Source: Escherichia coli
GTDB taxonomy: Bacteria; Pseudomonadota; Gammaproteobacteria; Enterobacterales; Enterobacteriaceae
Length of the DNA stretch: 64,000 bases
Direction: 5' to 3' (one strand)
NCBI RefSeq assembly: GCF_003334305.1
Contig: NZ_QOWS01000020.1
Of the stretch, positions 1-56,882 are shown one piece after another (the first letter of the stretch is position 1; every line of letters starts with the position of its first letter). Position numbers and translations under genes: made by a program. The notes below the pieces were generated by a model, which saw only the letters and a list, made by a program, of their open reading frames with translations, did no database searches and was not told the origin of the DNA.

Positions 1-248
1 ATACCTTTGCGTTCGGTATCGCGGATGTGACTCGCCTGAATCTCTTCTCCCGCAAAAATAATTTCGCCTTCGTAGGAGCCATGGGGATAAATACCACACA
101 GCACTTTCATCAGTGTTGATTTACCAGACCCATTTTCCCCACAAAGTGAGACGATTTCGCCAGCATTCAACCGCAAGCAGACGTTATCAATCGCCTTCAC
201 ACTGCCGAAGGTTTTGGTAATATTCTTCATTTCAAGTAGATAAGGCAT
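1..248 (-). CDS. xylG: xylose ABC transporter ATP-binding protein, N-terminal part (gene continues beyond window start)
   Basis: Reverse-strand translation from ATG at 246-248 reads [23 protein letters not shown]..., matching the XylG N-terminus; sits directly downstream of xylF as in the xylFGH operon. Confidence 0.85.
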
Positions 249-325
249 AACGACTCCACCTAAGCCAATTCATTCACGCGGCATGGAGAGAAATCACGCC
301 CCCGCTCCGCGCCGGGGCGTAACGC

Positions 326-1318
326 TTACAGCTCGCTCTCTTTGTGGAATCCGTCTTTAACTACCGTGTCTTTGATGTTGTTTTTATTCACATCGATCGG
401 TGTCAGGAGGCGGGAGGGCACATCTTTCAGGCCATTATTCAGTGTGGTATCTGCTTTTGGTTCCTGACCATTGCCCAACTCAACGGCAATTTCTGCGGCA
501 GTATTTGCCAACAACGTAATAGGTTTATACACCGTCATAGTTTGCGTACCGGCAGCAATACGTTTAATACCTGCGAGATCCGCATCCTGGCCGGAAATTG
601 CTACTTTCCCTGATAAACCTTGCGCGCTTAATGCCTGAATTGCCCCACCTGCGGTGGCATCGTTTGAGGCAACTACAGCATCAATTTTGTTATTATTGGC
701 GGTTAGCGCGTTTTCCATAATTTTCAATGCGTTTTCCGGTAACCAGCCATCAACCCATTGGTCACCAACGACTTTAATTTTTCCGGAATCAACGTAAGGT
801 TTTAACACTTTCATTTGTCCGGCGCGGAACAGCTTGGCGTTGTTATCTACCGGCGAGCCGCCCATCAGGAAGTAATTACCTTGCGGAACAATATCGACCA
901 GGGCTTTTGCCTGCAGTTCACCGACTTTTTCGTTATCGAAAGAAATATAAAAATCGATATCCGCATCGTTAATCATACGATCGTAAGCTAATACTTTAAT
1001 ACCTTCTTGTTTGGCTTCTTTTACAACGTTACTTAATACCTGACCGTTATACGGAATAATGACAAGAACATCGACACCCCGGTTTATCATGTTTTCAATC
1101 TGCGACATTTGTGTTTCTTCATTGCCATTTGCAGACTGTACAAATACTTTCGCGCCGAGAGATTCTGCCTTTTTCACAAAAATATCTCGATCTTTTTGCC
1201 AGCGTTCAAGACGGAGATCATCAATCGCCATACCTATTTTGACTTCTTTGGCGTGTGCCGCAACGTTGGTAAGCAGAAGTGAGGTGCAAAGGGTGAGTAG
1301 AATGTTCTTTATTTTCAT
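326..1318 (-). CDS. xylF: D-xylose ABC transporter periplasmic binding protein (330 aa)
   Basis: Track ORF 326..1396 trimmed to internal start MKIKNILLTL... with signal peptide; sequence matches XylF; divergent from xylA. Confidence 0.93.
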   Translation of the reverse strand: MKIKNILLTLCTSLLLTNVAAHAKEVKIGMAIDDLRLERWQKDRDIFVKKAESLGAKVFVQSANGNEETQMSQIENMINRGVDVLVIIPYNGQVLSNVVKEAKQEGIKVLAYDRMINDADIDFYISFDNEKVGELQAKALVDIVPQGNYFLMGGSPVDNNAKLFRAGQMKVLKPYVDSGKIKVVGDQWVDGWLPENALKIMENALTANNNKIDAVVASNDATAGGAIQALSAQGLSGKVAISGQDADLAGIKRIAAGTQTMTVYKPITLLANTAAEIAVELGNGQEPKADTTLNNGLKDVPSRLLTPIDVNKNNIKDTVVKDGFHKESEL

Positions 1319-1683
1319 GGTGTAGGGCCTTCTGTAGTTAGAGGACAGCTTTAATAAGTAACAATCACCGCGATAAACGTAACCAATTTTTAGCAACTAA
1401 ACAGGGGAAAACAATTACAGATTTTTATCTTTCGATTACGATTTTTGGTTTATTTCTTGATTTATGACCGAGATCTTACTTTTGTTGCGCAATTGTACTT
1501 ATTGCATTTTTCTCTTCGAGGAATTACCCAGTTTCATCATTCCATTTTATTTTGCGAGCGAGCGCACACTTGTGAATTATCTCAATAGCAGTGTGAAATA
1601 ACATAATTGAGCAACTGAAAGGGAGTGCCCAATATTACGACATCATCCATCACCCGCGGCATTACCTGATTATGGAGTTCAAT
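1319..1683. promoter_or_regulatory. divergent xylF / xylA promoter region (XylR- and CRP-controlled in E. coli)
   Basis: 365 bp AT-rich spacer between divergently oriented xylF and xylA; individual XylR/CRP sites not resolved by eye. Confidence 0.6.
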
Positions 1684-3006
1684 ATGCAAGCCTATTTTGA
1701 CCAGCTCGATCGCGTTCGTTATGAAGGCTCAAAATCCTCAAACCCGTTAGCATTCCGTCACTACAATCCCGACGAACTGGTGTTGGGCAAGCGTATGGAA
1801 GAGCACTTGCGTTTTGCCGCCTGCTACTGGCACACATTCTGCTGGAACGGGGCGGACATGTTTGGTGTGGGGGCGTTTAATCGTCCGTGGCAGCAGCCTG
1901 GTGAGGCACTGGCGTTGGCGAAGCGTAAAGCAGATGTCGCATTTGAGTTTTTCCACAAGTTACATGTGCCATTTTATTGCTTCCACGATGTGGATGTTTC
2001 CCCTGAGGGCGCGTCGTTAAAAGAGTACATCAATAATTTTGCGCAAATGGTTGATGTCCTGGCAGGCAAGCAAGAAGAGAGCGGCGTGAAGCTGCTGTGG
2101 GGAACCGCTAACTGCTTTACAAACCCTCGCTATGGCGCGGGTGCGGCGACGAACCCAGATCCTGAAGTCTTCAGTTGGGCGGCAACGCAAGTTGTTACAG
2201 CGATGGAAGCAACCCATAAATTGGGCGGTGAAAACTATGTCCTGTGGGGCGGTCGTGAAGGTTACGAAACGCTGTTAAATACCGACTTGCGTCAGGAGCG
2301 TGAACAGCTGGGCCGCTTTATGCAGATGGTGGTTGAGCATAAACATAAAATCGGTTTCCAGGGCACGTTGCTTATCGAACCGAAACCGCAAGAACCGACC
2401 AAACATCAATATGATTACGATGCCGCGACGGTCTATGGCTTCCTGAAACAGTTTGGTCTGGAAAAAGAGATTAAACTGAACATTGAAGCTAACCACGCGA
2501 CGCTGGCAGGTCACTCTTTCCATCATGAAATTGCCACCGCCATTGCGCTTGGCCTGTTCGGTTCTGTCGACGCCAACCGTGGCGATGCGCAACTGGGCTG
2601 GGACACCGACCAGTTCCCGAACAGTGTGGAAGAGAATGCGCTGGTGATGTATGAAATTCTCAAAGCAGGCGGTTTCACCACCGGTGGTCTGAACTTCGAT
2701 GCCAAAGTACGTCGTCAAAGTACTGATAAATATGATCTGTTTTACGGTCATATCGGCGCGATGGATACGATGGCACTGGCGCTGAAAATTGCAGCGCGCA
2801 TGATTGAAGATGGCGAGCTGGATAAACGCATCGCGCAGCGTTATTCCGGCTGGAATAGCGAATTGGGCCAGCAAATCCTGAAAGGCCAAATGTCACTGGC
2901 AGATTTAGCCAAATATGCTCAGGAACATAATTTGTCTCCGGTGCATCAGAGTGGTCGCCAGGAGCAACTGGAAAATCTGGTAAATCATTATCTGTTCGAC
3001 AAATAA
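1684..3006 (+). CDS. xylA: xylose isomerase (440 aa)
   Basis: Track ORF trimmed to [17 protein letters not shown]...; full-length match to XylA as recalled. Confidence 0.95.
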
Positions 3007-3077
3007 CGGCTAACTGTGCAGTCCGTTGGCCCGGTTATCGGTAGCGATACCGGGCATTTTTTTAAGGAACGATCGAT

Positions 3078-10166: not shown

Positions 10167-10352
10167 TATCGCTAAATAATACAGCAACCTTTAATAATCT
10201 TCTGCTGAATAAAGATTATCTCATATATTAATTTTATGAGGTTTTTTTAGGATTATATCAAGGAGAAGAAACAAACTTATTAAGCTAGAATAGCCACGGG
10301 TGCTTGAGACTGTTTGTCTCAGGTATTCACCGAAAGGCAGACAGAGAAAAGC

Positions 10353-10415
10353 CCCACCTGACTATAAATCAAAGTGAGGCTACCCTATGCCTGAACACCA
10401 TAAGGTTAGCCTCTT
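10353..10415 (-). ncRNA. sokA: candidate SokA antisense RNA (type I antitoxin), approximate bounds
   Basis: On the minus strand a 7-bp hairpin (GCCUCAC/GGUGGGGC) followed by UUUUCUCU lies just upstream of and overlapping the mok start, the position expected for Sok; the ends are inferred, not mapped. Confidence 0.35.
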
Positions 10416-10683
10416 ACTCGTTGGAAATCAACACAGGGGGCTGGGAATGCCGCAGAAATATAGATTACTTTCTTTAATAGTGATTTGTTTCACGCTTTTA
10501 TTTTTCACCTGGATGATAAGAGATTCACTGTGTGAATTGCATATTAAACAGGGGAGTTATGAGCTGGCGGCATTTTTAGCCTGCAATTTAAAAGAGTTAG
10601 AGTCTTCGGCGGGAAGTTATTCCCGCCTTTCTTACGGCGTTGCGCATTCTCATTGCACCCAAATTTATTTTTCACAAAAATAA
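10387..10683 (+). CDS. mokA: mokA-like reading frame (in-frame N-terminal extension of hok)
   Basis: ORF MPEHHKVSLLLVGNQHRGLG-MPQKYR... begins 20 codons upstream of and in frame with hok, as in chromosomal mok/hok pairs. Confidence 0.5.
   Translation: MPEHHKVSLLLVGNQHRGLGMPQKYRLLSLIVICFTLLFFTWMIRDSLCELHIKQGSYELAAFLACNLKELESSAGSYSRLSYGVAHSHCTQIYFSQK
10447..10683 (+). CDS. hokA: Hok-family type I toxin (HokA-like); frame runs 78 codons here against ~50 for canonical Hok
   Basis: MPQKYRLLSLIVICFTLLFFTWMIRDSLCELHIKQGSYELAAFLACNLKE... is a Hok family sequence; the codon after ...LKE is TTA rather than a stop and the frame continues to 10683. Confidence 0.7.
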   Translation: MPQKYRLLSLIVICFTLLFFTWMIRDSLCELHIKQGSYELAAFLACNLKELESSAGSYSRLSYGVAHSHCTQIYFSQK

Positions 10684-10724
10684 TACTAGATTTTATTACG
10701 CGATCGATTATTTATTTCCTGAAA

Positions 10725-10762
10725 AACAAATAAAAAAATCCCCGCCAAATGGCAGGGATCTT
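10725..10762 (-). terminator. rho-independent terminator of cspA
   Basis: Minus-strand hairpin ATCCCTGCCATTTGGCGGGAT followed by TTTTTTT downstream of the cspA stop. Confidence 0.8.
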
Positions 10763-10786
10763 AGATTCTGTGCTTTTAAGCAGAGA

Positions 10787-10999
10787 TTACAGGCTGGTTA
10801 CGTTACCAGCTGCCGGGCCTTTAGCGCCGCTTTCGATGGTGAAGGACACTTTCTGACCTTCGTCCAGAGATTTGTAACCATCGTTCTGGATAGCAGAGAA
10901 GTGTACGAACACGTCTTTAGAGCCATCGTCAGGAGTGATGAAGCCGAAGCCTTTGTCAGCGTTGAACCATTTTACGATACCAGTCATTTTACCGGACAT
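10787..10999 (-). CDS. cspA: major cold shock protein CspA (70 aa)
   Basis: [70 protein letters not shown]. Confidence 0.98.
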
Positions 11000-11225
11000 A
11001 GTGTATTACCTTTAATAATTAAGTGTGCCTTTCGGCGATATGGCGTGCTTTACAGATTTTGAAGCGTTAAAGGAATGTGCACTACGAGGGGTATCAACGA
11101 TAACTCTTGAAGGGACTTGCCTTACTACACTGCTTTAATGGTCTGTACGTCAAACCGTTGATGTGCATTAAGCCACGCATTGGCGGGTGATGCAACAATT
11201 ATTTTTCATATTTATGATTAATCGG
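11000..11225 (-). promoter_or_regulatory. cspA promoter and ~159-nt 5-prime UTR including the cold box
   Basis: Reverse complement of 11141-11158 gives ACGGTTTGACGTACAGAC (cspA mRNA 5-prime end / cold box); upstream minus-strand TTGCAT ... CTTAAT and an AT-rich UP-like region. Confidence 0.8.
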
Positions 11226-22355: not shown

Positions 22356-22432
<77 letters not shown>

Positions 22433-22438
22433 AATTCG

Positions 22439-22468
22439 AAAAGCCTGCTCAACGAGCAGGCTTTTTTG
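22439..22468 (+). terminator. rho-independent terminator of proK
   Basis: AAGCCTGCTCAACGAGCAGGCTT hairpin followed by TTTTT. Confidence 0.85.
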
Positions 22469-22519
22469 CATTTGTAGCTCATGAGGATGAGAACCTCCGG
22501 GGGCGGGGAGGTTCGACTC

Positions 22520-22615
22520 GACGTAGGCCTGATAAGACGCGTCAGCGTCGCATCAGGCAACGGCACCGCACTTATTGTCGGATGCGGCGTGAACGCCTTA
22601 TTCGACCTACACGCC
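22520..22615. repeat. REP / BIME-type palindromic units
   Basis: GCCTGATAAGACGCG...CGCATCAGGC and CGGATGCGGCGTGAACGCCTTAT units typical of E. coli REP elements. Confidence 0.7.
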
Positions 22616-30520: not shown

Positions 30521-30584
30521 GAGAGAAAACCCCCGCACGTTGCAGGTATGCACCTGACAACATAACGGGGGCTAATCTTGAACC
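30521..30584 (-). ncRNA. rdlD: Rdl antisense RNA (antitoxin), copy 1
   Basis: Minus-strand sequence GGUUCAAGAUUAGCCCCCGUUAUGUUGUCAGGUGCAUACCUGCAACGUGCGGGGGUUUUCUCUC ends in a GC hairpin plus U-run and matches the Rdl family as I recall it; ends approximate. Confidence 0.6.
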
Positions 30585-30637
30585 TAAACAACTCAAGAAT
30601 AGCCGCGAAACGTTGTCATTACAACACAGGCGGCTAT

Positions 30638-30745
30638 ATGACGCTCGCAGAGCTGGGCATGGCCTTCTGGCATGATTTAGCGGCTCCGGTCATTGCTGGC
30701 ATTCTTGCCAGTATGATCGTGAACTGGCTGAACAAGCGGAAGTAA
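30638..30745 (+). CDS. ldrD: Ldr small toxic peptide (35 aa), copy 1
   Basis: ATG at 30638; MTLAELGMAFWHDLAAPVIAGILASMIVNWLNKRK, Ldr family; not in the supplied ORF track (below its length cutoff). Confidence 0.85.
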   Translation: MTLAELGMAFWHDLAAPVIAGILASMIVNWLNKRK

Positions 30746-30794
30746 CGTGTCATGCGGGCGTCAGGCTGCCGTAATGGCAATTTGCGCCCGGACC

Positions 30795-30827
30795 AGGCCG
30801 CAGGGGTGAAACTCTGCGGCCTTTTTC
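30795..30827 (+). terminator. rho-independent terminator of ldr copy 1
   Basis: AGGCCGCAGGGGTGAAACTCTGCGGCCT hairpin followed by TTTTT. Confidence 0.8.
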
Positions 30828-31003
30828 GTAAGAAAAATGCAACGGTTGCAAGCGGATAATATTCTGCGGAATGCGCAGCACAGAGTGAGTAAGTGATGGA
30901 TTTCGGAACAGAAAAACAGTCGTAGAATCAGCGGCAAGCCGGAAAGGTTCCGGTAAGGCGCAATGTTGCGGGGGCTTTATCCCTGGTGGCATTGGTTGCT
31001 GGA

Positions 31004-31067
31004 GAGAGAAAACCCCCGCACGTTGCAGGTATGCACCTGACAACATAACGGGGGCTAATCTTGAACC
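31004..31067 (-). ncRNA. Rdl antisense RNA, copy 2
   Basis: Identical to copy 1 over this segment. Confidence 0.6.
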
Positions 31068-31120
31068 TAAACAACTCAAGAATAGCCGCGAAACGTTGTC
31101 ATTACAACACAGGCGGCTAT

Positions 31121-31228
31121 ATGACGCTCGCAGAGCTGGGCATGGCCTTCTGGCATGATTTAGCGGCTCCGGTCATTGCTGGCATTCTTGCCAGTATGAT
31201 CGTGAACTGGCTGAACAAGCGGAAGTAA
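31121..31228 (+). CDS. Ldr small toxic peptide (35 aa), copy 2
   Basis: ATG at 31121; identical predicted peptide to copy 1. Confidence 0.85.
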   Translation: MTLAELGMAFWHDLAAPVIAGILASMIVNWLNKRK

Positions 31229-31277
31229 CGTGTCATGCGGGCGTCAGGCTGCCGTAATGGCAATTTGCGCCCGGATC

Positions 31278-31310
31278 AGGCCGCAGAGGTTAAACTCTGC
31301 GGCCTTTTTC
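31278..31310 (+). terminator. rho-independent terminator of ldr copy 2
   Basis: AGGCCGCAGAGGTTAAACTCTGCGGCCT hairpin followed by TTTTT, abutting the bcsG stop. Confidence 0.8.
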
Positions 31311-54954: not shown

Positions 54955-55145
54955 AGCGTGTTCCCCTCACCCTAACCCTCTCCCCAAAGGGGCGAGGGGA
55001 CTGTTTTGTGCGTGTTGAAACAACGAGTACCGCTTTTCCGTTCACTTTCTGGGGGAGGGCTGTTATGTTCGCGATATAACATCTCGCTCCGCTTTTCTCC
55101 CTCTCCCTTTCAGGGAGAGGGCTGGGGTGAGGGTGGCTGCCCACA
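54955..55145. repeat. pair of GC-rich hairpin repeat units in inverted orientation (unclassified intergenic repeat)
   Basis: Unit 1 CCCCTCACCCTAACCCTCTCCCCAAAGGGGCGAGGGG (~54962-55000) and unit 2 TCCCTCTCCCTTTCAGGGAGAGGGCTGGGGTGAGGG (~55097-55132) are near reverse complements; between convergent yhjG and yhjE. Confidence 0.6.
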
Positions 55146-56785: not shown

Positions 56786-56882
56786 AGCCGGATGCGATGC
56801 TGGCGCATCTTATCCGGCCTACGGGGAGCCAGGCCGAATAAAATCGTATGCCGGATAAGGCGTTTACGCCGCATCCGGCCTA
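56786..56882. repeat. REP / BIME palindromic units
   Basis: GCCGGATGCGATGCTGGCGCATCTTATCCGGCCTAC and TGCCGGATAAGGCGTTTACGCCGCATCCGGCC, canonical REP sequences, immediately downstream of yhjD. Confidence 0.8.

Follow-up and report, generated by a model that had tools for sequence, protein, structure and literature searches.

A GC-rich hairpin between xylF and xylG of Escherichia coli as a candidate protective stem-loop in the xylose transporter mRNA

The xylF–xylG spacer and its stem-loop

Does the stem-loop that follows xylF in the xylose transporter operon of Escherichia coli favour the binding protein over the ATPase and permease and, if so, does it end transcripts or protect them? We addressed this question in a stretch of 64,000 nucleotides (the window; NCBI RefSeq contig NZ_QOWS01000020.1). 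The window comes from the E. coli chromosome. A query of 301 nt spanning the site has a single match in each of 5,415 of the 5,426 complete E. coli genomes. RefSeq annotates the matching DNA as xylF (D-xylose ABC transporter substrate-binding protein) and xylG (ATP-binding protein), as in K-12 MG1655. The annotation fits the gene identities given in a preliminary description of this DNA, and the interval singled out there, 249..325, is exactly the 77-nt xylF–xylG spacer (Table 1). The xylF stop codon is TAA (328..326, minus strand). Upstream of the xylG ATG, GTGGAG or GCGGAG is kept in most Enterobacteriaceae spacers. No feature is annotated inside the spacer in the K-12 record.

Table 1. Positions of the genes, the spacer and its structural elements in the window
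Feature	Position	Strand	Basis
xylF	326..1318	−	ORF list; RefSeq annotation of identical DNA; K-12 xylF annotated as 993 nt
xylF–xylG intercistronic spacer, 77 nt	249..325	−	Sequence and ORFs; also 77 nt in the K-12 record
Hairpin 1, full; −23.1 kcal/mol	293..323	−	RNAfold; K-12 and other E. coli alleles fold alike
Hairpin 1, GC-rich core ACGCCCC-GGCGCGGAGCG-GGGGCGT	296..320	−	Exact match, unique in window
Pyrimidine-rich tail GAUUUCUCUCC after hairpin core	285..295	−	Sequence
Predicted second helix, CUCCAU (288..283) with GUGGAG (259..254)	254..288	−	Minimum-free-energy fold of isolated spacer
xylG Shine-Dalgarno region AGGUGGAG	254..261	−	Sequence
xylG 5′ part (ABC transporter ATPase), ATG 248..246, gene exits window start	1..248	−	Translation; RefSeq annotation

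The preliminary description had placed a GC-rich hairpin just after the xylF stop and before xylG, and this is borne out. The string noted, CGCCCCGGCGCGGAGCGGGGGCG (319..297, minus strand), belongs to a structure (hairpin 1) that folds at −23.1 kcal/mol and begins 3 nt past the stop. RNAfold returns a 10-bp stem, a 1×1 G·G mismatch, a 2-bp inner helix and a 5-nt loop, a fold that makes up 82% of the ensemble. The 5′ arm (323..314) leads through the unpaired G313 and the inner helix (312..311) to the loop GCGGA (310..306), and the 3′ half returns through the inner helix (305..304) and the unpaired G303 to the 3′ arm (302..293). The lower four pairs of the stem are G·U, U–A, U·G and A–U.

How unusual is such a hairpin? 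The 37-nt hairpin stretch has a z-score of −3.26, with 1 of 200 dinucleotide shuffles folding equally well. For the entire 77-nt spacer, shuffles give z = −1.97, and for the best compact hairpin within its first 50 nt p is about 0.02. Hairpins of −18 kcal/mol or below number 53 in the window when the strands are taken separately (27 plus, 26 minus), a count that exceeds the number of distinct sites since palindromes score on both strands; by a rough estimate, one would fall by chance in any particular 50-nt stretch a few per cent of the time. On the window sequence alone the hairpin is real and its significance just moderate. What places it clearly beyond chance is its recurrence at the same position across species.

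Hairpin 1 is a single-copy structure. Its core (320..296) has no second copy in the window at up to 3 mismatches, and the 41-nt hairpin region occurs at one place per genome in the 5,415 E. coli genomes (blastn, word size 11, E up to 10). An Rfam search of 1..2000 at E up to 10 gave no match to the hairpin, just two chance matches elsewhere, and there is no match for it at gathering thresholds. Single copy and without an Rfam match, the hairpin is not a REP element; membership of REP, BIME or another repeat family is rejected on these grounds and on the absence of the REP consensus. The real REP-like elements of the window (22527 and 56787–56879) are unlike it.

Elsewhere in the window, Rfam matches at gathering thresholds comprise the cspA thermoregulator, sok antitoxin RNA, two copies of rdlD with duplicated flanking hairpins, naRNA4 (a REP-type element) and a tRNA. 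The regions picked out by Rfam or the hairpin scan are 10298..11159, 22356..22607, 30524..31305, 54962..55121 and 56787..56879. The scan itself found REP-like palindromes at 56787..56879 and GC-rich palindromes at 54962..55000 and 55099..55121, the latter two of which we take to be boxC-like.

The opposite strand has features of its own. Opposite the xylG 5′ end, 196..223 (+) reads as a sigma-70-like site, TTCACA-16-TAATAT with an extended TG. Two antisense 3′ ends appear in Adams et al. (2021): one opposite xylG, at K-12 3732416 on the minus strand (window about 33, plus strand), and one opposite xylF, at K-12 3731907 on the minus strand (window about 542, plus strand). The second comes from another table, which apparently compares read counts between treatments. 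An antisense RNA may cross the xylF–xylG spacer.

Variation within E. coli and across Enterobacterales

Within E. coli the hairpin varies little. Among the 5,415 genomes the 41-nt region is identical to the window in 2,637, 95–99% identical (1–2 mismatches) in 2,774 and more divergent in 4. Inside the hairpin, nine aligned alleles carry either G or A at each of the two mismatch bases (5′ and 3′) and a change of CG to TT in the loop; of the 31 nt, 7 are unpaired, and all four variable sites are among these 7 (hypergeometric p = 0.0011). A random substitution costs on average 3.8 kcal/mol at paired bases versus −0.3 at unpaired ones, and the substitution alleles retain the same fold at −20.8 to −23.1 kcal/mol. 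In one strain the C4 run is one base short, leaving a weaker fold of −17.7 kcal/mol. The tail after hairpin 1 is invariant across the nine alleles. Strain 2EC1 carries a natural 15-nt deletion (GAATGAATTGGCTTA), equivalent to window 261..275, that shortens the spacer to 62 nt; it lies downstream of hairpin 1 and touches neither the hairpin nor the xylG Shine-Dalgarno sequence.

For comparison across species, 80 Enterobacterales xylF loci were retrieved and all their xylF–xylG spacers extracted. All but one of the 43 Enterobacteriaceae species examined have a compact GC hairpin that starts 0–10 nt (median 6) past the xylF stop; in the remaining one, Shimwellia, it is farther downstream. The 42 hairpins fold at −13.4 to −24.7 kcal/mol (median −16.9), and each is more stable than the mean of its own shuffles. 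Single-species shuffle p-values are often unimpressive (0.01 to 0.37), because GC-rich spacers readily re-form hairpins when shuffled; the species are also related. These cross-species statistics ignore phylogenetic relatedness and overstate independence, and a fairer count is the 20 sequence families into which the hairpins, the window included, fall at 75% identity. A covariance model built from E. coli and Kluyvera reaches other genera just at E of 0.08 to 10, on both strands. Hence, the structure is kept and the sequence is not.

MAFFT alignments of the hairpins did not bring the arms into register, and RNAalifold predicted no pairs from them. In place of formal covariation we relied on folding each species against its shuffles and on compensatory pairs checked by hand. 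The E. coli C12–G pair is U–A in two Citrobacter loci (L002 and L003), and in one of these (L003) the C7–G pair is also U–A; the E. coli G·G mismatch is A–U in Kluyvera. When both strands were searched symmetrically, the better fold was on the sense strand in 27 cases and on the antisense strand in 13 (Wilcoxon p = 0.0036), owing to G·U pairs, and the C-rich arm is the 5′ arm in 36 of 43. This strand bias and the C-rich 5′ arm point to a role at the RNA level, on the mRNA strand. The comparative evidence as a whole thus supports a selected, sense-strand RNA hairpin at this position of the spacer.

Protection from decay or termination of transcription

Paralogous operons suggest what the hairpin may do. 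In K-12, compact GC hairpins lie just after the binding-protein gene in the araF–araG spacer (CCCCUCUGCAU / GCAGAGGGGG; L088, 3071..3139) and in the mglB–mglA spacer (GGGCGCAGU / ACUGCGCCC; L089, 4291..4350). Exactly this mglB hairpin is listed under a Term-seq 3′ end by Dar & Sorek (2018, PLoS Genet, PMC5927463; table S6), who find that mglB exceeds mglA 2.65±0.37-fold in half-life and 3.04±0.57-fold in mRNA level (table S3) and class the hairpin as a decay barrier without a terminator motif. The class comprises stable hairpins without U-tracts at the 3′ ends of stabilized upstream operon segments, conserved in Salmonella and Enterobacter, with published members at around −16 to −20 kcal/mol; in the ABC-transporter operons scored as decay-regulated, the stabilized gene is always that of the substrate-binding subunit (PMC5927463). 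The xylFGH operon is absent from their set, presumably being unexpressed without xylose.

The xylF–xylG and mglB–mglA spacers share the transporter family, the gene order (binding protein, ATPase, permease), a length of 60–77 nt and a compact GC hairpin a few nt past the binding-protein stop; neither has a proper U-tract, although the xylF tail is not free of U. Their sequences are unrelated, and the xylF hairpin is the more stable (−23 versus −17.7 kcal/mol) and has the internal 1×1 mismatch. The role of the mglB hairpin has experimental support (the Term-seq 3′ end and 2.65-fold stabilization); that of the xylF hairpin is predicted. An intercistronic structure likewise follows the binding-protein gene in malE–malF, where it blocks 3′-to-5′ exonucleases and raises binding-protein expression (Newbury, Smith & Higgins 1987, summarized in PMC5927463). 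That structure consists of REP repeats, present in hundreds of copies, whereas the xylF hairpin is single-copy in each of the 5,415 genomes and lacks the REP consensus. Like the published decay terminators, such as those of malE–malF, mglB–mglA and puf, the xylF hairpin is stable, lies at the 3′ boundary of the gene that would be stabilized and is conserved as a structure in relatives.

By analogy with these systems, the hairpin most likely raises xylF mRNA relative to xylGH. We give an even chance to the reading that it does so as an intercistronic 3′ protective stem-loop, or 'decay terminator', in the polycistronic xylFGH(R) mRNA. Transcription from the xylF promoter would read through the spacer; xylR is reportedly co-transcribed from that promoter. 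The xylGH part of the message would then be cut by an endonuclease and degraded in the 3′-to-5′ direction, until PNPase and RNase II stalled at the GC-rich base of the hairpin, a few nt past the xylF stop, as in malE–malF and mglB–mglA. An xylF-only mRNA ending at the hairpin would accumulate, and periplasmic binding protein would be made in excess of the ATPase and permease. A minor share of leaky intrinsic termination may come from the interrupted U-rich tail of E. coli, at the same site and in the same direction.

A serious rival, which we regard as possible rather than probable, makes such termination the main mechanism. The hairpin would act as a leaky Rho-independent terminator (an attenuator), just after which some RNA polymerases stop, so that xylF is transcribed more than xylGHR and the 3′ end at the hairpin is a primary one. 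The sequence after the last G–C pair is indeed U-containing: UGAUUUCUC (296..288), with 5 U in 9 nt, is a marginal and interrupted U-tract downstream of a GC-rich stem, and it is among the sequences invariant in the nine E. coli alleles. Its longest U-run is 3, the interruptions being G, A and C. An intrinsic terminator joins a GC-rich stem-loop, which is present here, to a U-tract of typically 6 or more U in 8–9 nt, more than the xylF–xylG tail holds, and a simple terminator scan called no terminator-like site in 1..1700.

Other genera divide in the same way. Across 43 sequences (the window and 42 species) the tails are modestly T-enriched relative to the rest of the spacer (0.37 versus 0.28), as leaky termination would have it, but at least 5 U in 9 nt are found in just 10 of the 43, and 7 U in no tail. 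Most genera have a hairpin without any U-tract, for example Enterobacter (CAUCGACGU) and Kluyvera (UCGGCUGGC). As U-rich tails are rare among the 43, the conserved feature is the hairpin, not the U-tract. Three Rahnella loci have a canonical arrangement of A-tract, hairpin and U-tract at the same junction (AAAAACAACAC...GUGUUGUUUUU); the element adjoins the xylG ribosome-binding site and looks like a bidirectional intrinsic terminator.

The sister operon also lends the terminator reading some weight. The xylA–xylB spacer (3007..3077, plus strand) contains a hairpin (3038..3053) followed by T7 that the terminator scan does call, and the K-12 record annotates the sRNA XylZ in this spacer. XylZ is processed from the xylA 3′ end and has been verified by northern blotting (PMC8175672). 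This terminator, or XylZ 3′ end (3038..3060), resembles the xylF–xylG element in its GC-rich stem-loop with a C-rich 5′ arm, its U-containing tail and its position inside an operon. It differs in that its U7 is uninterrupted and scan-called, whereas UGAUUUCUC is not called and the xylF–xylG U-tract is unconserved in other genera. Both xyl operons therefore carry a structured element after the first gene, of different types. In K-12 the xylH–xylR spacer, outside the window (L081, 5903..5979), has a strong canonical terminator-like hairpin, CUCAAAGCCGGU...ACCGGUUUUGAG followed by U5 (−24.9 kcal/mol, z = −4.3).

Because the hairpin is conserved across genera, the U-tract is not and the terminator scan is silent at the site, a stabilizer appears to fit better than an attenuator. 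If xylR is indeed co-transcribed from the xylF promoter, read-through must be substantial, which also speaks against termination as the main mechanism, as does the classing of the homologous mglB hairpin as a decay barrier (PMC5927463). The invariant E. coli tail, with its 5 U in 9 nt, nevertheless keeps the division between decay protection and termination two-sided. The proposal of the preliminary description, an intra-operon attenuator or mRNA stabilizer favouring the binding protein, is thus supported by the comparative evidence and the mglB–mglA paralogue.

In the tables of Adams et al. (2021) the xylF–xylG spacer has no 3′ end on the sense strand, the operon being uninduced in their conditions. 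RNA-seq of EHEC has xylF up 2.5- to 5.8-fold and xylG and xylH unchanged or up about 2-fold, which weakly supports a hairpin raising xylF over xylGH; in another RNA-seq study the fold changes are alike (xylF 7.28, xylG 7.85). Such fold changes are inconsistent between studies and cannot give the relative levels of genes within an operon. A literature search on xylF/xylG with terminator, stem-loop, hairpin or Term-seq found nothing on the xylF–xylG hairpin.

Further readings and meaning for the operon

It is unlikely that the hairpin has no selected role, either as one of the GC-rich palindromes that arise easily after stop codons or as the relic of an ancestral terminator that predates the fusion of xylF with xylGH. 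Many single-species shuffle tests, with p above 0.05, would agree with such a history, as would Pantoea and some Serratia, in which the spacer hairpin is absent altogether. Against it, the same position is filled in 42 of 43 Enterobacteriaceae despite sequence turnover and with compensatory changes, E. coli polymorphism avoids the paired bases, the sense strand is favoured, and paralogous operons share the feature, with experimental support in the case of mglB.

The loci without a spacer hairpin have another structure. In Pantoea (L052–L061, L064 and L065) and Serratia (L058, L069, L071 and L075) the spacer is 17–29 nt long and a strong hairpin, CTGTGCGGA...TCCGCACGG, lies inside xylG at about +140 nt, over 10 codons. 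Its mean energy is −19.5 kcal/mol versus −13.2 in long-spacer loci (Mann–Whitney p = 9e-6), a contrast that comes from about two independent lineages. The E. coli of the window has no such xylG-internal hairpin. In Pantoea and Serratia it may be a relocated protective hairpin. On this reading, weaker than the translation-gated one considered next, selection would retain a hairpin at some point past xylF and would have moved it in these genera into xylG, to about +140 nt.

Translation of xylF could also enter the mechanism, though we think this improbable. The 5′ arm begins 3–6 nt past the stop (0–10 nt in the 42 species), so close that a ribosome at the xylF stop would keep it from folding. 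The hairpin would then be a translation-gated former of 3′ ends, its folding, and any leaky termination or block to exonucleases that follows from it, tracking the spacing between ribosome and RNA polymerase. Were this so, the XylF:XylGH ratio would follow translational status rather than being fixed.

Control of xylG translation by the spacer is very unlikely. The tail sequence CUCCAU would pair with the Shine-Dalgarno GUGGAG and lower XylG synthesis, a pairing that appears as the second helix in the minimum-free-energy fold of the isolated spacer (Table 1) and whose partners are both invariant in the E. coli alleles and spared by the 15-nt deletion of 2EC1. When 30 nt of xylG are added, however, the probability of Shine-Dalgarno pairing with the upstream spacer is just 0.17, and across the 43 Enterobacteriaceae it is 0.40 versus 0.60 in shuffles (higher in 10 of 43; Wilcoxon p = 0.0002). 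Not robust to the xylG sequence and below shuffled expectation in 33 of 43 species, the anti-Shine-Dalgarno helix (288..254) is rejected, on these models, as probably no functional part of the element. Least credible is a hairpin that forms the 3′ end of an sRNA processed from the xylF 3′ region, like XylZ (xylA–xylB) or RbsZ (rbsB–rbsK): the two are known sRNAs of the 'intergenic in operon' type, one of them in the divergent xylAB operon, but the xylF hairpin has no long U-tail for Hfq binding, its K-12 spacer is unannotated, and prediction tables based on RIL-seq list xylF just as a CDS with very low score and hold no xylF–xylG intergenic entry, for which reasons we reject this reading.

We return to the hairpin as a protective stem-loop. 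The element is an unannotated, ordinary representative of a known class, whose mechanism has been known since 1987 and was generalized in 2018; it opens no new question, and its practical value is modest. Engineered xylose-utilizing strains that rearrange xylFGH would do well to keep the hairpin or tune it deliberately, and annotation pipelines could flag it. For the biology of the operon, the xylose transporter joins the ABC-transporter operons that apparently set an excess of binding protein by an intercistronic hairpin, here one whose structure persists across Enterobacteriaceae even as the sequence changes.
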